Positions 4,214 through 38,776 of a DNA stretch of 45,733 nt are shown here, one piece after another; position 1 is the stretch's first letter; the number at the start of each line of letters is the position of its first letter. Source of the DNA: a virus (Duplodnaviria > Caudoviricetes); the IMG/VR virus record IMGVR_UViG_3300012349_000008, positions 1 through 45,733 of that record. One strand, 5' to 3'. The notes below the pieces were generated by a model that saw only the letters and a list, made by a program, of their open reading frames with translations, was not told the origin of the DNA and ran no database searches. A program made the position numbers and the translations under genes.

Positions 4214-4435
4214 ATGACTGTATATTTCAATAAATTCAAAGGTATAGACAGAAATTTTATAACAGTAGGTATTAAGAATCCAGATATAGCTCTAGTTCAT
4301 ATTCTTACAGAAGAAGATTTCTTAAAAATGGTAGACCAAGTTAAAAATAACCCTGCTGCATTTGTTATTCCTTTAGAACTACATACATACTGTGACCATG
4401 ATAAAGGTTATTGTGCCAAGAATCGAGATGAATAA
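4214..4435 (+). CDS. Hypothetical protein
   Basis: 73 aa, coupled to TerL (TAATG). Confidence 0.6.
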   Translation: MTVYFNKFKGIDRNFITVGIKNPDIALVHILTEEDFLKMVDQVKNNPAAFVIPLELHTYCDHDKGYCAKNRDE

Positions 4436-6138
4436 TGTGGTCTTTACATAACCTCTTTCCTATATGTATAAAACCTACATGTCCATTATTTAACTCACGC
4501 CATATGCTCCCACATCAAGAAGAAATAGCTACTCAAATACTTACAGGAGATGAGAATTACATATACTGGCAAGGAGGTGTAGGAAGTGCTAAAACTATGC
4601 TCTATGCAGCACTAGCAGTAGCTTTAGCAATATCTATTCCAGAAAGTGAAGGTATTTTATTTAGAAAAGACCTAACAGATAATAATAAAACACTCTGGAA
4701 GTACTTTAAGAACTCCATCAAAGCTGCATGTGAACAAAATATAATTAAAGGTAACTTTGATAAACTCTTTAGATTCAAACACCAAGGAGACTATAACGAA
4801 TGCCACTTACCTAATGGATCTATCGTATACAGAGGTCAAACTAAATCCTGGACTGCATATATGGGACCTACATATGACTTTATAGTAGTCTCTGATGCAA
4901 TGGAAAATAATAACTTTGGTGAAATCTTCCGTGGAGAAGGAGTAGTAGGTGGACTACAAAGTAGATTACGAGGGCAGCATGCTTCGTTCTTTAAACTACC
5001 TAACGGACAGTACAAAGATATGCGTAGATTCCTTATTGAAACTAACCCTCCTCCTAATATCAATGAATTACACACCTTATTCGGGAGAGAACCAGGAATA
5101 CGAAATCTTACAACAACTACTGACACATATACAGGAAAGTATATCACATATAGACACATTCAAACAACATCTGTGCAAAATGATCATAACCCATCCTCCT
5201 ATGTATTAGAAATTGCCTCTACACATTCCAACCCAGATGACATACGTAGAATTCTAGAAGGTAAGACTGTTCCTTATTACGGTGGTATACGTGTAATAGA
5301 AACCTTCCATCCAGAAGTACATGTAGCTTCCTTTGAGACTGATATTGAACTCCCTCTATTTGTAGGTATAGATCCTGGATTTCAACATCCTGGTGTTACG
5401 TTTAGTCAAATTAAAAAGTGTGCATATAATAAAGATCACTACATAACTCTTTCAGAGATTACTAATCTGTACGATAAAACTACTTACGAACTAGCAGATT
5501 ATAGAAACTCTGATCAACTAGGAATCCTTCAACACCTACAGGACTTCTATCCTACATACTTTGATCTTGAAAGATATACACAAGTAAAGGAAATGTTAAT
5601 AGAAAGATCAGGAGATCCTACAGATATAGATTTCTCTATATTAGAAAATCACTTTACCAACATATACTTCTGTATAGATAAATCAGGAAATAACACAAGT
5701 AGAACTAATAAGGACTCAAAGAGTGATAGAAGTATCCTTCTTACAGAATACGGAATTAACACTAAGTTTAAAACAAACATAGGTCTTGAACAATCTTTAA
5801 ATAGAGTACGTAAACTTCATAAAGAACTCTGTATATGTAACCTCCCTGCTAGAATGATAGATAAGAACTGTTACATGCTTATAGATGCATATAGTGGAGG
5901 GTATAGATATCCTAAGAAGAAAGATGGAACTCATGGGGATAAACCTGTAGAAGATCATAATTATGAAGATATATGTGATGGAGATAGATACTCTCTAGAA
6001 AACTTCTTATGGTCTACATCCTATCTAGAGGATATAAAAATAGAAACTAAAAAGAAAACTCTGTATGAAGAACTATACGGAAGTAGTGGAAATCCTAAGT
6101 ATCCTTGGTCTTGGATGGGAGATATCTCACGTGGATAG
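4435..6138 (+). CDS. terL: Terminase large subunit
   Basis: PHQ Q-motif, Walker A GGVGSAKT, coupling motif ETNP, nuclease GIDPG and C-terminal D-x-x-D-G-D-R-Y. Confidence 0.93.
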   Translation: MWSLHNLFPICIKPTCPLFNSRHMLPHQEEIATQILTGDENYIYWQGGVGSAKTMLYAALAVALAISIPESEGILFRKDLTDNNKTLWKYFKNSIKAACEQNIIKGNFDKLFRFKHQGDYNECHLPNGSIVYRGQTKSWTAYMGPTYDFIVVSDAMENNNFGEIFRGEGVVGGLQSRLRGQHASFFKLPNGQYKDMRRFLIETNPPPNINELHTLFGREPGIRNLTTTTDTYTGKYITYRHIQTTSVQNDHNPSSYVLEIASTHSNPDDIRRILEGKTVPYYGGIRVIETFHPEVHVASFETDIELPLFVGIDPGFQHPGVTFSQIKKCAYNKDHYITLSEITNLYDKTTYELADYRNSDQLGILQHLQDFYPTYFDLERYTQVKEMLIERSGDPTDIDFSILENHFTNIYFCIDKSGNNTSRTNKDSKSDRSILLTEYGINTKFKTNIGLEQSLNRVRKLHKELCICNLPARMIDKNCYMLIDAYSGGYRYPKKKDGTHGDKPVEDHNYEDICDGDRYSLENFLWSTSYLEDIKIETKKKTLYEELYGSSGNPKYPWSWMGDISRG

Positions 6139-6289
6139 TATTGACATTAGTAGATATAAAGAGTATGATTACATACTAACCTGTGTAGACTGTCTTCCTA
6201 TTGCACAGGAAATGTATAAAGACGCTCCTGATGATTATATAACGGTCGTAAAAGATATAAATCGGTGTGAAATAAATGCCCATAAGTAA
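6131..6289 (+). CDS. Small hypothetical protein
   Basis: GTG start after GGAG; CxxC. Confidence 0.45.
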   Translation: MDSIDISRYKEYDYILTCVDCLPIAQEMYKDAPDDYITVVKDINRCEINAHK

Positions 6290-8129
6290 AGACGATGAGA
6301 AGTGGGTGTTAGACATCCTTTTAGGACCACTAGAAGGAGTACGTAATAGACGTAAGTTTATAGAAAATGAATGGTTAGGAAATTACAGAGCCTGGAGAGG
6401 TTGGCCTACCTATAACTACATGTTACCTCTATCAGATGGAGCTATTCATTACTTCATTCCTCACGCCCGTAGGACTATAGAGCGTGGTAACTCTAGAATT
6501 AAAAAACTCTTACTCCCTAGAAGTAAGTTCTTTCAAACCTTCCCAAGAGATATGTACAGCCATGAAAATGCTCAATATGTAGACTCATACTTAGACTTTA
6601 TATATTCAGAAAAGATAGAAAAGAATAGACTTATAGGCTCTTTAATAAGATCCTTACAACTCTATAACTTCTCTGTATTAGGAACTTCTATAAAAGTAAC
6701 AAATGATGAAGTATGGCCTTATCAACAAGATATAGATCCTTTTTCCTTTTATATATTCCCTGATACTGCAGGAACAAGAGATGAAGCTCAAATTATCTTC
6801 CAAGATATAATTATCCCTTATCAAGTTTACTACAGCTTTGTAGATAGAGATGATCCTGAACATTCTCTGTACGACTACATTTCTAGTGATAAACTCCACA
6901 CTCCTATATGGCCTTACCATTTAATAGAACGTCTAGCATATGCTGGATTAAGTAGTCCATCAGACTTTATGCATGGTACTGGTAACTATAAACGTAAAAC
7001 AGAATAAGATTTAAAAAAGGAGAGTAAAGAATTTATAGACTCCTTTACTAAACGTAGTAATGCTTTCTTTCAAGGTAGTAAGGTATATTTTAGATTAGGA
7101 GGAAAGTGGTTCTATACTGTAATATGTTACAATACTCAAGAACCATGTCTTGTAAGATTAGATGAAGAGGAGAATACTCCTTTATATCGCTGGGCTAATG
7201 AAAGACCTCTACCTGGAGAACTTTATACAAGTTCCTCTCAAATGGATGATATACGAACTCTACAAACTCTAGCTAATAATGCTTTAAGTCAAGTAGAAAG
7301 TAACAGAAGTGTAGTAGCTGAACCTCCTATAGCTAGAGATAGAAATCAAGCTACACGTACAGAGCAATATGTATATGGACCTAGAAGGATATGGGATGTA
7401 GAGGGAGATCCTAACAATATATTTAAAACTATACAGATTCAAGATACTGGACCTGAGGGAATAAGAGCATTTCAAATATATTTAGGCTTAATGGATAGAG
7501 GAAATGGAGGAACTATAGCAGAAGGTCAGCCTGGTAGAAATATGCCTAGAGCTGGATTTGCAGTGAATAACTTAGTTAACTTATCCCTAGCAGATACAGA
7601 AGATAGTGCTACATGTATAGAAGAATCTCTACTAACTCCTGGTATAGGAGATATCTACCATGTAACTCTAGAATATATTCCTACTTCTCAACTCATAAAG
7701 ATACCAGGAAAAGCTGGCAATCTTCCTAAAGTATTTAATAAACTAGACCTACGTGGTAACTACACCTTTAAATGGCAGTGTTCTCTAGAATTTAGAGATA
7801 CTCAACAAGTAGCTGACTCTTTAACGAAGTTACTAGAAATCTTAACTAATCCAGAAACTATTCAACTCTTACAAAGTCAAGGTAAACAAGTTAACTTTGC
7901 TTCTTTAATACAAACTCTCTTTATCTACTCAGTAGGAGAAGAAGGGTTAGATGATATAATTATAGATGCTCCACCTATGCAACCTATGCAGCCAGGTATG
8001 CAACAAGGTGGAATGCAAGGAGGTATGCAACCTCAACTCCAGGGTGGCGGACAAGGTAGTATACCTCCTCAGATACAACAAGCTTTACAATCTCTACAAG
8101 GTGGAGGGAATAAAGGAAATGTCCAGTAA
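6276..8129 (+). CDS. Portal protein with one in-frame TAA at 7005-7007
   Basis: ORFs 6276..7007 and 7242..8129 are in the same frame and 7008-7241 is open; position after TerL; IDPFSFYIFP motif; Q/G/M-rich tail; ~617 codons in total. Confidence 0.82.
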
Positions 8130-10243: not shown

Positions 10244-11569
10244 ATGGCTGATGTAATTAACAACTTCCAGTCCCTTGCCAATGATGCTCCTAATGTAATG
10301 ATTACTAAGAGGATGTATGAACTATCTGAAAGGAACTTAGCATTAGGTCAGTTTGCTGATGATAGAGAACTAGAAGCTTATATGTCTAAAACAATGCGTA
10401 TTGTAAGGTATAACAGGTTTAACATTCCTAATGCTCAGCTAGTAGAAGGTGTACCCCCTGATTCTGTAGCACTTGGTTTCACTTTTGTAGATGTTACTCT
10501 TGAACAGTGGGGTATTGTAGCCCTTCTGACAGATGTAGGACTTATAACTATTACTCACCCCATTCTACAAATAGCTATTGATAGGTGTTCCTTAGCCATT
10601 GCTGAACTTATGGAAAGAGAAATGGCTAATACTTTACTAAATACAGGTACTACTGTTATTTATGGAAATGCAGGAGTTACTACTAGAGCTTCTATAGTAA
10701 ATAGTGGAAGTCCTAAAACTGACAGGTTAACTACTTCTACACTTGTAAGTGCTACAGCTCAACTACGTGCTTTAGGTGCTCCTGAATTTGAAGGTGGTCT
10801 CTATGGAGTAGTAGTCCAGCCACAACAAGAAGCTGATATGCTTCTCAGTGATACCGTATTTCAGAATAGTTCTAACTTTGCACGTGTACGTAAGTTAGAG
10901 AATGCTGAGATAGGTATATACATGGGTGGACACTTTGTACGAGGTAACTTTCTACCTATATACCGTGGAGAAGCTGCTCCTGATAGCTCCGCTGCTACAA
11001 GTGTAAAGGCTAGAGCTACTGTTACAGATACAGGTGGAGCATTAGCAACAGGAAACTATCAAGTAGTAGTTGTAGCAAGAGATCTTACAAGTGATTATGA
11101 ACGTAGAATCTCTCAGAACAGTGCTAACTTAGCTGTATCTGCATCTATTACCACAGGAAGTATTACAGTAACTACTCCTACTGCTGTTTCGTATTCATAC
11201 GATATCTACCTCACAAGAGTAGGTGCTACTATACCTTTTAAATTAGTAAGTAGAGGACTTCCTAATACTTCTTATATCCTTACTACTCAGCCTGCAGGTA
11301 CAGAGACTATAGCTCCTACTGCTCCTGCTAGTGGATTAGAGATATTCATGGCATGGATGTTAGGTAAGAATGCATTTGCACGTGTAAAGCTCAATGCAAT
11401 GTCTATGCAGTCTTATATAACTCCTCCTGGAGCTTCCTATTCTAATCCTATTGCTCAAGGACGTAAAGTAGGTACTAAAACTATGTTTAAATGTGCTGTA
11501 CAGGACCAGAACTTTATGATTCGTATTGAAACTGTAAGTTCTATAGGAGCATTTCTACCTACTACTTAA
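10244..11569 (+). CDS. Major capsid protein (N4-gp56-like HK97 fold) with Ig-like insertion
   Basis: LVEGVPP, VTLEQWG, EIG-Y-G-HFV and NPIAQ-RKVG-K motifs typical of this capsid family. Confidence 0.9.
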   Translation: MADVINNFQSLANDAPNVMITKRMYELSERNLALGQFADDRELEAYMSKTMRIVRYNRFNIPNAQLVEGVPPDSVALGFTFVDVTLEQWGIVALLTDVGLITITHPILQIAIDRCSLAIAELMEREMANTLLNTGTTVIYGNAGVTTRASIVNSGSPKTDRLTTSTLVSATAQLRALGAPEFEGGLYGVVVQPQQEADMLLSDTVFQNSSNFARVRKLENAEIGIYMGGHFVRGNFLPIYRGEAAPDSSAATSVKARATVTDTGGALATGNYQVVVVARDLTSDYERRISQNSANLAVSASITTGSITVTTPTAVSYSYDIYLTRVGATIPFKLVSRGLPNTSYILTTQPAGTETIAPTAPASGLEIFMAWMLGKNAFARVKLNAMSMQSYITPPGASYSNPIAQGRKVGTKTMFKCAVQDQNFMIRIETVSSIGAFLPTT

Positions 11570-27704: not shown

Positions 27705-28445
27705 ATGGGAAGATATACACGTGATGAAATACTAAGTCATGCATTAGACTTTCTCCAGAGTCCACCCTTAGATAGACATGATAGACCTGGAGATGTGATA
27801 GATCAAAATGCATTTTCTATATCATGGTTACAAAGTGCCTTAGATAGATGTCATGTAAAGTTTCCATTTAGTACTGATATTCAAGATGTAAGCATTACCT
27901 TTCAGAGTAATAGTACAGATGTAGTATTAAGTAGTGATACTACAAAGTACCTCCCTACAGATTTTATCTTAGATGTCAGAGATGGAGTTATATATACTTC
28001 TGGAAATCAAAGTATTAGATTAAAGAGAAAGTCCTTTCAATATTGGTTAAGTCTATACAACTCAACACTTAATAATAAAAGTCCTGTACCTTCTATATAT
28101 ACAATAATCCAAAATAGAATTAAAGTAGCTCCTATTGTACAAACTAACATATCAGGAACTCTATGGTATTACAAACTTCCTTCTCTAGTAAACTCAGGAG
28201 ATTACATAAACTTTCCTGATGAGTGGACTCTTATAGAATACGTCCATATAAAAGGAATGGAATGGAACCATACAGTAGATTTAGGTACTTCTCAAATGTT
28301 CTTAGAGAAAGAATTAGCAAGACTTAAAGCTGCTGGGTTACTTAATGAAACAGAATATGATGTAGTTCCAATAGAGAATGATCAAATCTTTAGAGATACT
28401 CCTATAGGAGATAGAAATTCCTGGATGGGTGATATAGCTAGGTAA
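27705..28445 (+). CDS. Head-tail adaptor (tail tubular protein A-like)
   Basis: WLQSAL, Y-LPTDF, P-IY and YYKLP...FPDEW pattern of podovirus adaptors. Confidence 0.72.
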   Translation: MGRYTRDEILSHALDFLQSPPLDRHDRPGDVIDQNAFSISWLQSALDRCHVKFPFSTDIQDVSITFQSNSTDVVLSSDTTKYLPTDFILDVRDGVIYTSGNQSIRLKRKSFQYWLSLYNSTLNNKSPVPSIYTIIQNRIKVAPIVQTNISGTLWYYKLPSLVNSGDYINFPDEWTLIEYVHIKGMEWNHTVDLGTSQMFLEKELARLKAAGLLNETEYDVVPIENDQIFRDTPIGDRNSWMGDIAR

Positions 28446-35780: not shown

Positions 35781-36015
35781 CTTCTATCTCCTTTATCCTA
35801 TCCATTACTCTATAAGTAATTAACTCTAAAGTTTCCTCTTTACATAAAGGACATCTTATGTCATGTACTTTATAATCCCCATCTACTAGAGACATATTCA
35901 TATATACTGCACCATACGAAGCACAACTACTACATCCTAGTAAATGTAATATAAGTACATCTCCTTCTTCTGTAAGAATTACTTCTCCTATGTTAATAGA
36001 TAGAATATCTTTCAT
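35749..36015 (-). CDS. Zinc-ribbon protein
   Basis: CSSC...CPLC. Confidence 0.6.
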   Translation of the reverse strand: MKDILSINIGEVILTEEGDVLILHLLGCSSCASYGAVYMNMSLVDGDYKVHDIRCPLCKEETLELITYRVMDRIKEIEDDNQEDGWDI

Positions 36016-37193
36016 ATAGAAGGTCTCCTTGTTATCTTAAAAGTAGCAGTAATAGGAATACTATTACTTTCATATGTAAGTTCTCTTTGAGTAACATCTT
36101 TAACTTCTTGTAGGATTTGTAACTCTTCTTCCTCTCTTCCTCTAGAACTTGTAGAAGTATATGGAAACGCCCATTTTAATGAATCATGTTGATTTTGTAT
36201 TAAATAAGACTCTTTAAATCTCTTTTGTAGTAATATACATGACTCATTAATATAACTCGCTACAGTTCCTTGTATTCTAAAATTAAATCCTTCCTTAGCT
36301 GTACTTTGATTTTGAAAGTAAAATAGTCTACGACCTCCATATAAAGTCCTTGCTATTAAATCCTTTCTTATCCTTTCCATCTCTTCAGCTTTACGTTTTT
36401 GAATCTCTACATTACCTTCAATAAAATTAATAGCGATACTGATGTAATTAGGAGTGACCAGGTTACCTTCCTCATTTGGTATAAGAAAGGATTCAATATT
36501 TGGGATTGTATAGACAAATGCTGGATTATAAATAAGCCTGTTAAACACCCTATAAGGAGGCTTAGGCTTATACTTACCGTATCTATCAATAGATACATAA
36601 AAATACTGTCCACCATATGTTAAGTTTTTAGAAATAGTTCTACGTGGGTCATCCTTTCCATTCCACTTTACTTCTTCTCTCCATCTCTCATCTTCTTTAG
36701 AGCTGTGGGGATTATAAATATTATTACATAAAGGCAAGTTGAAAAGACCACAAGTAACTGGAGTATGTATATCCACACCATTTCTTAAATCCCTTAACCT
36801 TTCCTTCCAATCTAATATTAAGCAATAAATCCTATGTTCTACAGCATCTAAGTCATGTTCAATCCAGAATGTATCTTTATCAGGTAGTAAGCAGTCTCTA
36901 ATACTCCAACATATAGATGTTTTCTCATGTATCCCCTCTGGACACTTAGGATTAATACACTTCTTAGGAAATCCATTAAGAGCTGGATTTAAATAAGACC
37001 ACCTTCCACTACTTTGTGTTGGTAAGATAACAGGATGTATTCTATCTTCATGTCTTAAAGAAGCCAAGAAGGTATCTTTAAGAGTATGTATATTTGAATA
37101 CTCTAATCTTAAAGAAGCTATATCTTTCTCTTTCTTACCTAATGTATCTCTTTGTAAAGCTTTTAATAATTCATCTCTAGATACAGAGGGCAC
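36012..37193 (-). CDS. Family A DNA polymerase, polymerase subunit
   Basis: SGRWS-NP-L, motif A DLDAVEHR, motif B R---KNLTYG--Y, N--IQG, motif C HDS; likely GTG start at 37193 behind AAGGAG. Confidence 0.9.
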   Translation of the reverse strand: MPSVSRDELLKALQRDTLGKKEKDIASLRLEYSNIHTLKDTFLASLRHEDRIHPVILPTQSSGRWSYLNPALNGFPKKCINPKCPEGIHEKTSICWSIRDCLLPDKDTFWIEHDLDAVEHRIYCLILDWKERLRDLRNGVDIHTPVTCGLFNLPLCNNIYNPHSSKEDERWREEVKWNGKDDPRRTISKNLTYGGQYFYVSIDRYGKYKPKPPYRVFNRLIYNPAFVYTIPNIESFLIPNEEGNLVTPNYISIAINFIEGNVEIQKRKAEEMERIRKDLIARTLYGGRRLFYFQNQSTAKEGFNFRIQGTVASYINESCILLQKRFKESYLIQNQHDSLKWAFPYTSTSSRGREEEELQILQEVKDVTQRELTYESNSIPITATFKITRRPSI

Positions 37194-37195
37194 TA

Positions 37196-38776
37196 TTACT
37201 CTCCTTCTATATCTTCTTCTAGACATTGTTGAGAAGCTAGATACTCTAAAGCACCTTTTATAGCTTCTTCTACATCTAGTTTAAATTGATCTTTACTAGA
37301 TCTACTTCTCTTTACCTTTTCCTTTACAGGCTTTACGTATATACCTTCATACACAGCACTACTTACTTGTTGATGACTAGCAATATTAAACTCTACATTA
37401 CCTGCTACTTCCTTACTCGTTTCTACTATATCTTCCATTTCCTTATCTAATAGGTCTGCTATATACTGTACTCTCTCTTTATATACTTCTACTCCTTTCT
37501 TCTGGAATTTATCTATTATATATAAAAGAGGTTGTCTTCTTAACATATACTCTTGCCATGATAACTTATCTCTTGTAAATTCCATAAGTTCATACTTCCA
37601 TACATGATTAAGAGTTGTATCAGCATCTAATCCTGCATAGAAGTACTTCATGTTTAAATCTCTAGTAGTTCTTATGTGTTTATGTCTGTTATATCTCCCT
37701 ACACATGAAGTCATGTAATCTAAATTAGTAGGCTCTCCTGGAAATAGCGTACTCCAGCCTAACATACAGTCTTCTAGTTTTATACTCTCTACGTTAAATA
37801 CTTTTATGAAATGTGGTAAGTCTACCAACCCATTCTGAGTAACTACCGTAGTGTTAGGCTGAATAGGTAGAATATTAAAAGCATGAGTATGGTGAACATC
37901 ACAGACGTAAATATTACCTTCAACATCTGCTAGACTCCACATTTCTAATCTATTATTATCTTCTATGTTATACTCTGTGTCAAATCCTATATACTTAGGA
38001 ATACTTGTAGGTTGCATATTTATATTCATATATGGTGTTTCTACAGGCCATTCACCTCTTACAAATCTACCAAACTTTATAAAATCTAATACAGTAGCTC
38101 TATATAAAGTTGGATTCTTAAATAGAGAAGCTATATGAATTACTGGGTATATATTCTTTAAAACTCCTTCAGGTTCATCTCTTATAGGATGGTAGTAAGA
38201 GTCAAATCCTAATATCTGTGTATTAATATACCCACTATCTACTCCCAATACCCAACCTCTCCAATCTGTTATTCCGTTATTAACTCCTTCTAAATTTGTT
38301 AGAGCATATAGAGAGATCCCACCCATAGAAAGGATGTAGGTGTTACTGTCAGGGATATTAAGATAATTCTCTGTACAATGCTTAATTGCATCTTTAAGCA
38401 TAGTAGGAGTAATTCCATTCACAGTCTTATTACTATTAATATTAGGTAAATCATTCTTTCCATGTGGTCTACACTTTATAATATTAGCTCTTGATACTTG
38501 AGAGTATGGAATTTTAGTATAAGGAAAAAACTCATCCTGTAACCATTTTCCACTAGGACCTATTAGAGGCTGAGGCCTTACACTTTCTGTAACTTCTAAC
38601 TTCTTTCCACCTTTATATAGATATCCTGTTATCTTTCTACCTTCCTCTTCATGTTCTCCTGGAGCTTGAGCTACTATACATACTTGTGAATCTTTAACGT
38701 AATAGTCAGGAGTTATATAAGATGATAAACTATACAGAGGACAAGGCTTACAAGAATCAGGTTTAGGTATAAACAT
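37196..38776 (-). CDS. Uracil-DNA-glycosylase-like domain + 3'-5' exonuclease + N-terminal thumb of family A polymerase
   Basis: Family-4 UDG pattern CxxC, AQAPG, N--KCRP, HIA; ExoI FDTE, ExoII N---D, ExoIII YAGLD; FNIAS-QQ. Confidence 0.88.
   Translation of the reverse strand: MFIPKPDSCKPCPLYSLSSYITPDYYVKDSQVCIVAQAPGEHEEEGRKITGYLYKGGKKLEVTESVRPQPLIGPSGKWLQDEFFPYTKIPYSQVSRANIIKCRPHGKNDLPNINSNKTVNGITPTMLKDAIKHCTENYLNIPDSNTYILSMGGISLYALTNLEGVNNGITDWRGWVLGVDSGYINTQILGFDSYYHPIRDEPEGVLKNIYPVIHIASLFKNPTLYRATVLDFIKFGRFVRGEWPVETPYMNINMQPTSIPKYIGFDTEYNIEDNNRLEMWSLADVEGNIYVCDVHHTHAFNILPIQPNTTVVTQNGLVDLPHFIKVFNVESIKLEDCMLGWSTLFPGEPTNLDYMTSCVGRYNRHKHIRTTRDLNMKYFYAGLDADTTLNHVWKYELMEFTRDKLSWQEYMLRRQPLLYIIDKFQKKGVEVYKERVQYIADLLDKEMEDIVETSKEVAGNVEFNIASHQQVSSAVYEGIYVKPVKEKVKRSRSSKDQFKLDVEEAIKGALEYLASQQCLEEDIEGE

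Follow-up and report, generated by a model that had tools for sequence, protein, structure and literature searches.

Large terminase and head-tail adaptor share a W-M motif at their C-terminal tails in a phage family seen in metagenomes

Results

The stretch of phage DNA analyzed here, which we call the window, is the whole of IMG/VR record IMGVR_UViG_3300012349_000008 (45,733 nucleotides). Its large terminase (TerL; 567 aa, plus strand, 4435..6138) comprises an ATPase, an RNase H-type nuclease and a flexible tail and is encoded directly 5' of the portal gene. The sequence carries GGVGSAKT and IVVSDAME, which we take to be Walker A-like and Walker B-like, respectively, and the terminase motifs are kept across its homologues. 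Searches with the window protein itself gave no match in Pfam, PHROG or NCBIfam and nothing in the PDB by sequence; all four of the homologues scanned (P0061, P0063, L028 and L030) match Pfam Terminase_6N or Terminase_3, and tblastn found an annotated TerL at 2e-9. N-terminal ATPase motifs, C-terminal RNase H-type nuclease motifs and a position in front of the portal gene are together what identifies a large terminase, and the protein has all of them. Two cysteine clusters, each possibly a metal site, were also seen: a conserved C-x4-C...H at the N terminus (4465-4505) and, within the nuclease, an invariant C-x-C (5830-5838).

The portal gene (617 codons, plus strand, 6276..8129) was recognized through a fold match of its L001 counterpart. 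In the window only, it is split by an in-frame TAA at 7005-7007; the corresponding codon in L001 is GAA, and position 7005 is G in contigs of all four sequencing runs. Since the stop is absent from L001 and from all four runs, we regard it as an assembly error or a minor variant. The model of the intact L001 portal (pLDDT 79) had as its best Foldseek match the portal of phage SU10, gp6 (7Z44, E 1.2e-17). Where the wing loop begins, portal residues 40-42 (6393-6401) read W-x-G, which is WRG in the window; the same segment has WM in many distant portals (WMN in 27, WMG in 13 and WMA in 6 of 118 compared) and so resembles the tail motif described below, although it may be only a structural motif of portals. 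The major capsid protein lies downstream on the same strand (10244..11569; phrog_1357 major head protein, E 3e-23). On the minus strand, a family-A DNA polymerase is apparently split between two overlapping open reading frames (36012-37226 and 37196-38776), the upstream of which has a uracil-DNA glycosylase-like domain according to weak NCBIfam matches.

An SU10-type head-tail adaptor of 246 aa is encoded on the plus strand at 27705..28445, 16 kb past the capsid gene and among fibre-like genes. It belongs to Pfam SU10_adaptor (PF24175), scoring 30.4 bits against a curated cut-off of 27, and 55 of 69 adaptor homologues match the same family (E<=0.001). By sequence, the PDB yielded only a weak match to the VP1 adaptor (E 0.03). 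The predicted structure (pLDDT 89) shows a bundle of helices, a beta dock domain and, at the C terminus, an arm that, past residue 210, is extended and of low confidence (pLDDT 57-68); its top Foldseek matches are portal-tail or tail chains of VP1, Pa223, A4, GP4, SU10 and N4 (E 4e-7 to 9e-5). The identities that a first-pass annotation had given to the two genes thus hold, that of the adaptor through the Pfam family and the fold matches and that of TerL through the Pfam matches of its homologues. Gene order varies within the family, and in one relative (G007; L021 10001-12429) the adaptor gene stands immediately 5' of TerL. Seven long proteins (P0258, P0259, P0261, P0263, P0264, P0266 and P0275; 448-1737 aa) contain 2-11 adaptor-profile stretches each, and several of them end in Trp-rich peptides.

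The same annotation had taken its precedent from P22-like podoviruses; in the folds of both portal and adaptor, the phage is SU10/VP1/Pa223-like. The SU10 adaptor gp11, which has an embracing loop, is of the same family and architecture (PF24175, PF23899; PMC9509320, in the part available). The window phage does not fall within the SU10 genus, since its record measures 45.7 kb and SU10 77.3 kb, and tblastn searches of 50,697 GenBank phage records with TerL and the adaptor returned no kuravirus. Neither those records nor a set of bacterial genomes contained a close relative, no related prophage was seen in the bacterial genomes, and we found no cultured member; the family is seen here only in metagenome data. 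Nine sequencing runs that contain 50% or more of the words from window positions 5900-7600 are soil metagenomes. The adaptor was seen in none of five fragments that bear TerL, each of which is incomplete.

The window TerL ends in ...NPKYPWSWMGDISRG, of which SWMGDISRG and the stop codon occupy 6109-6138, and the adaptor ends in ...GDRNSWMGDIAR, with SWMGDIAR and its stop at 28419-28445. The terminal peptides are identical in 7 of 8 residues and, by hand count, in 17 of 24 coding bases; apart from the S/A codon, the base differences fall at synonymous positions, in agreement with the earlier statement that the match is one of protein rather than DNA, and the DNA 3' of the two stop codons looked dissimilar by eye. 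When all six frames of the window were scanned for words of the WMG type, only these two ends matched. By naive chance, about 0.001 pairs with at least 7 of 8 identities are expected among the 62 gene ends at 25 offsets, and aligning the final 45 residues of the two proteins locally gave a score of 42 (p=0.004, 500 shuffles). Contigs of all four sequencing runs compared, with run X10 (share 0.09) set aside, cover the TerL end and list no alternative letter. As whole proteins, TerL and the adaptor are not detectably homologous (profile-profile comparison, probability 0.2%).

Both tails have the same layout. In TerL, a variable linker (residues 526-556; 6010..6102, plus strand) runs from the end of the nuclease to the terminal motif PWSWMGDISRG (6103..6138 with the stop), whose family core is P-W-x-W-M. 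Across 36 homologues, conservation does not exceed 44% in columns 527-556, compared with 78% at P557, 56% at W558, 97% at W560 and 81% at M561. The lysines of the window linker are not conserved, and the tail is not of the basic, portal-binding P22 type; P-W-x-W-M is conserved instead. In the adaptor, the arm (residues 211-236; 28335..28412, plus strand) begins with G-L-x-x-E-x-E-x-x-x-x-P, becomes variable and leads to the terminal motif RNSWMGDIAR (28413..28445 with the stop; family core [Y/N/W]-x-W-M-G). Here the 69 homologues keep G211 at 94%, E217 at 90% and P222 at 84%, fall to 45% or less over columns 225-236 and return to 90% at W240, 74% at M241 and 86% at G242. The reach of the two tails is similar, about 30 residues: the spacing between the RY of the nuclease and the W of TerL has a median of 30 (range 28-40, n=33), and the adaptor linker before the motif has a median of 29 (range 20-57, n=82). 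The residues that follow the W number 13 (median) in TerL, often as a further segment, versus 6 in adaptors. In being a conserved island within a flexible, variable tail and in occurring above chance on unrelated proteins, the motif shows two of the hallmarks of a shared short linear docking motif.

For counts across the family we used complete C termini only, setting aside open reading frames cut by a contig end, TerL sequences lacking the RY motif of the nuclease end, and adaptor matches that exceeded 420 aa or did not reach profile position 215. This left 64 distinct TerL and 130 distinct adaptor tails, which thinning at 70% identity reduced to 40 and 107 representatives. W[MLI] occurs in 33 of the 40 TerL and 97 of the 107 adaptor tails and WM in 27 and 84, respectively; among 575 other gene ends from 11 genomes, the figures are 54 for W[MLI] and 7 for WM, one of the latter being an adaptor that the filter had missed. 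Seven TerL and 10 adaptor representatives lack W[MLI], and P0197, P0199, P0203, P0236 and P0262 are adaptor homologues without it at the end. We therefore confirmed that the shared tail motif is real and family-wide, and the tail likeness that the first-pass annotation had proposed to look for in homologous phages is present, so that its claim was not refuted there. What stands of the peptide as first described is the aromatic-x-W-M core, because SWMGDI(S/A)R as such is confined to one clade.

The two families differ in what surrounds the core. After WM, adaptors have G in 90 of 97 tails (W[MLI]G is present in 91 of the 107 representatives), whereas TerL has E in 20 of 33 and G in only 2 of 33, giving consensus tails of P-W-x-W-M-E in TerL and [Y/N/W]-x-W-M-G in the adaptor. 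Read from these sequences, the part common to both (TerL PWxWME, adaptor [Y/N/W]xWMG) is only 2-4 residues long. The full TerL form, P[WYF]xW[MLI], is nevertheless found on 10 of the 107 adaptors, and one distant adaptor, P0198, ends in WGWMGDLSRG, almost identical to the end of the window TerL; the forms thus look interchangeable at the level of sequence.

Position matrices built from one family recovered the other. In 7 of 11 genomes, a matrix trained on adaptors alone placed TerL at rank 1 among the gene ends, with ranks 5, 5, 6 and 46 in the others, and one trained on TerL alone placed the adaptor at rank 1 in 7, rank 2 in 3 and rank 4 in 1; the W anchor had been picked after the tails were viewed and the genomes are kin, so that the ranks are not independent. 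Three of these 11 genomes come from the window clade; five are incomplete, three having been read as two loci each and two being partial records. When the window clade was omitted from training, its three genomes still ranked TerL 1, 1 and 1 and the adaptor 1, 2 and 3, and 21 of the 40 TerL and 48 of the 107 adaptor tails scored above the 99th percentile set by 574 background tails.

The longer match has a narrower distribution. In a quick IQ-TREE phylogeny of TerL, WMG[D/E] marks one clade of 7 rows with support 100, plus one separate WMGG; in a FastTree phylogeny of adaptors, W[ML]GD[IV]xR marks one clade of 10 rows, also with support 100, in which one row has WMRD. No pair scored higher than 6 of 8 identities when representatives were compared in 3201 cross pairs, and the match of 7 in 8 is limited to the window clade. 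Because the same three paired genomes make up the overlap in both clades, both tails changed on one branch, as a single event. The GDI(S/A)R extension was likely one episode in which both tails adjusted to the same pocket. Co-variation of the two termini across related phages, which the earlier annotation had suggested as a check, was not detected: when cognate pairs were compared with shuffled ones by permutation, likeness gave p=0.13 with 13 pairs, 0.19 with 10 pairs after kin were thinned and 0.72 without the window clade, and the only joint change was the one on the stem of that clade.

Outside the family, we compared the TerL and adaptor ends of P22, Sf6, T7, SU10, epsilon15, PaP3, N4, HTVC106P, cto1L10 and ctUh1700. 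The adaptors of HTVC106P and ctUh1700 were assigned by HMM and those of P22, Sf6, T7, SU10 and epsilon15 from record notes or papers; for PaP3 (orf9), N4 (gp67 and gp68) and cto1L10 we presumed the adaptor from gene position. None of the 10 showed a shared tail at p<0.05, the lowest value being 0.07. The P22 TerL tail is unlike the end of gp4 (score 22, p=0.11), the end of Sf6 gp7 is unlike that of Sf6 TerL (p=0.72), and, unlike the window phage, SU10 has no tail common to TerL and gp11 and WM in neither. In T7, gp19 EMSVGG..D weakly resembles gp11 EMDYGG..D (L208), a likeness not above shuffles (p=0.22). In the nearest outgroups with an HMM-supported adaptor, ctUh1700 and HTVC106P, WM is missing from both proteins, which would fit joint presence and absence, in two cases only.

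Discussion

That a terminase and then another protein use one portal site in succession is already known, at least from the accessible parts of reports on SPP1 (PMC9701221) and Sf6 (PMC9728967). In SPP1, the terminase and then gp15 occupy one clip pocket of gp6 (PMC9701221), and the likeness to our case is that the terminase and then the C terminus of an adaptor meet a common portal interface; the difference is that SPP1 has a siphophage clip pocket that was mapped by portal mutations and that the accessible text mentions no peptide shared by terminase and adaptor. In Sf6, gp7 is said to displace a pentameric TerL by competition, and its arm runs between portal subunits and carries an aromatic YYPGDL near its end; in contrast to the reading that we favour below, the last ten residues (151-160) contact coat protein, in five of the twelve copies (PMC9728967, in part). 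The P22 work, from the portion available (PMC5290284), bears on the terminase side. TerL lacking its last 17 residues (gp2 tail 483-499) loses portal binding, the tail binds isolated portal rings, the gp4 tail enters between portal subunits, and gp4 may help displace TerL. P22 differs in that its TerL tail is basic and proline-rich, that TerL release is ascribed to a change in portal shape and that gp4 and TerL are thought to sit on different portal surfaces, and P22 itself has no shared tail, so that the precedent taken from P22-like phages needs correcting. For the adaptor side, the available text on SU10 places the arm between two clips and across a stem, with its tip between the wing loop and the next stem (PMC9509320). 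For P74-26, binding of five terminase tails to the hexons that surround the vertex is offered by the authors as speculation (PMC12407722, in part).

We give a slightly better than even chance to a model in which the TerL and adaptor tips dock sequentially in one hydrophobic pocket of the outer portal ring. Each protein ends in a flexible arm tipped by the conserved aromatic-x-W-M peptide. By extension from SU10, the adaptor arm would thread the portal clips and put its W-M tip into a pocket between wing loop and stem, in all twelve subunits. While DNA is being packaged, the motor would hang by up to five TerL tails, seated in five of the twelve pockets, and once the head is full, adaptor subunits would occupy the pockets and replace the tether. 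The main source of motor exclusion would be the adaptor ring on the clip, and the motif would then be a common anchor that aids the hand-over rather than its sole enforcer. The interpretation in the first-pass annotation is supported in part. It had proposed that the motif itself enforces a mutually exclusive hand-over; five motor tails are too few for twelve pockets, so exclusion would not follow from the motif by itself. Its description as a portal-docking motif also needs qualifying: by analogy with the systems above, the portal is the likely partner of both tails, with the coat protein as a live rival. A prediction of two portal copies (L001 21-503) with TerL 536-567 scored 0.00 in both runs and weighs neither way. 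A stronger version, in which motif competition itself ends packaging, with the motor on five W-M-held pockets and adaptors loading the seven free ones and peeling it off, strikes us as conceivable but on balance doubtful; if it were true, the adaptor site in a virion map would directly reveal the anchor of the terminase tail.

Several results count against this model of sequential docking on the portal: the shortness of the common core, the TerL ranks of 5 and below in 4 of the 11 genomes, the tails of both proteins without W[MLI], the choice of the W anchor after the tails were viewed, the kinship of the genomes, the lack of cognate co-variation, the different residue after WM, the 0 of 10 outside phages, the separate surfaces in P22 and the coat contact in Sf6. 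The last of these would fit a rival in which both tips instead bind coat protein at five positions round the portal vertex, five TerL tails at first and five of the twelve adaptor tips later. A set of five TerL tails would agree with the five-fold capsid, the speculation on vertex hexons in P74-26 points the same way, and the ctUh1700 adaptor stops short of the WMG position, so that the tip looks like an add-on past the conserved arm. In Sf6, however, YYPGDL (145-150 by hand count) falls within the 150 residues that the accessible text describes as resolved on the portal in twelve copies, and the coat-binding part is an acidic extension past it (PMC9728967); with the SU10 tip lodged between portal wing loop and stem (PMC9509320) and isolated portal rings bound by the P22 TerL tail (PMC5290284), we consider docking on the coat unlikely.

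About equally improbable, in our judgment, is that the two aromatic anchors are unrelated, the adaptor tip binding the portal and the TerL tail binding TerS, a neighbouring TerL or some other portal surface, with convergence on Trp and Met and luck in one clade accounting for the likeness. The divergent residue after WM, the permutation results, the TerL tail that often extends further beyond the W and the P22 precedent (PMC5290284, in part) would all be expected if the partners were separate. Yet few other gene ends have WM (7 of 575), it is the functional pair of TerL and adaptor, among all genes, that shares it, both of the nearest outgroups lack it on both proteins, and both tails changed on the same branch. 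Far less credible is a chance match, or one gene end recently copied as DNA over the other, with no shared function. The identity of 7 in 8 is indeed restricted to one clade, and the GDI extension could stem from one old recombination event at the TGGATG codons, but old copying would account for the extension only. The core is kept in both families far outside the window clade, which largely refutes chance or copying for the core, and recent DNA duplication was rejected for it because the two ends differ at synonymous positions and are followed by dissimilar DNA.

We found no report of a peptide shared by TerL and an adaptor in the literature searched; supplements and most subscription journals lay outside that scope and could hold such a remark. 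The accessible portions of PMC5290284, PMC9509320, PMC12407722, PMC7617512, PMC9701221, PMC9728967 and PMC11728703 do not contain one. The motif was likewise not found outside this phage family (0 of 10 comparators), which limits how far the proposed docking in one portal pocket can be extended.

Where the terminase tail is anchored and how the motor is released from a full head are still argued, with the portal proposed in P22 (PMC5290284) and possibly the capsid in P74-26 (PMC12407722), to judge from the available parts of both papers. A tail shared by motor and adaptor makes the question of the anchor simply testable, since virion structures resolve adaptor tips and the two short peptides can be set in competition on recombinant portal. 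If sequential docking in one portal pocket is true, one assembly factor mimics another to order viral assembly, and the finding also points towards a pocket at which packaging and tail attachment alike could be blocked by a short peptide.
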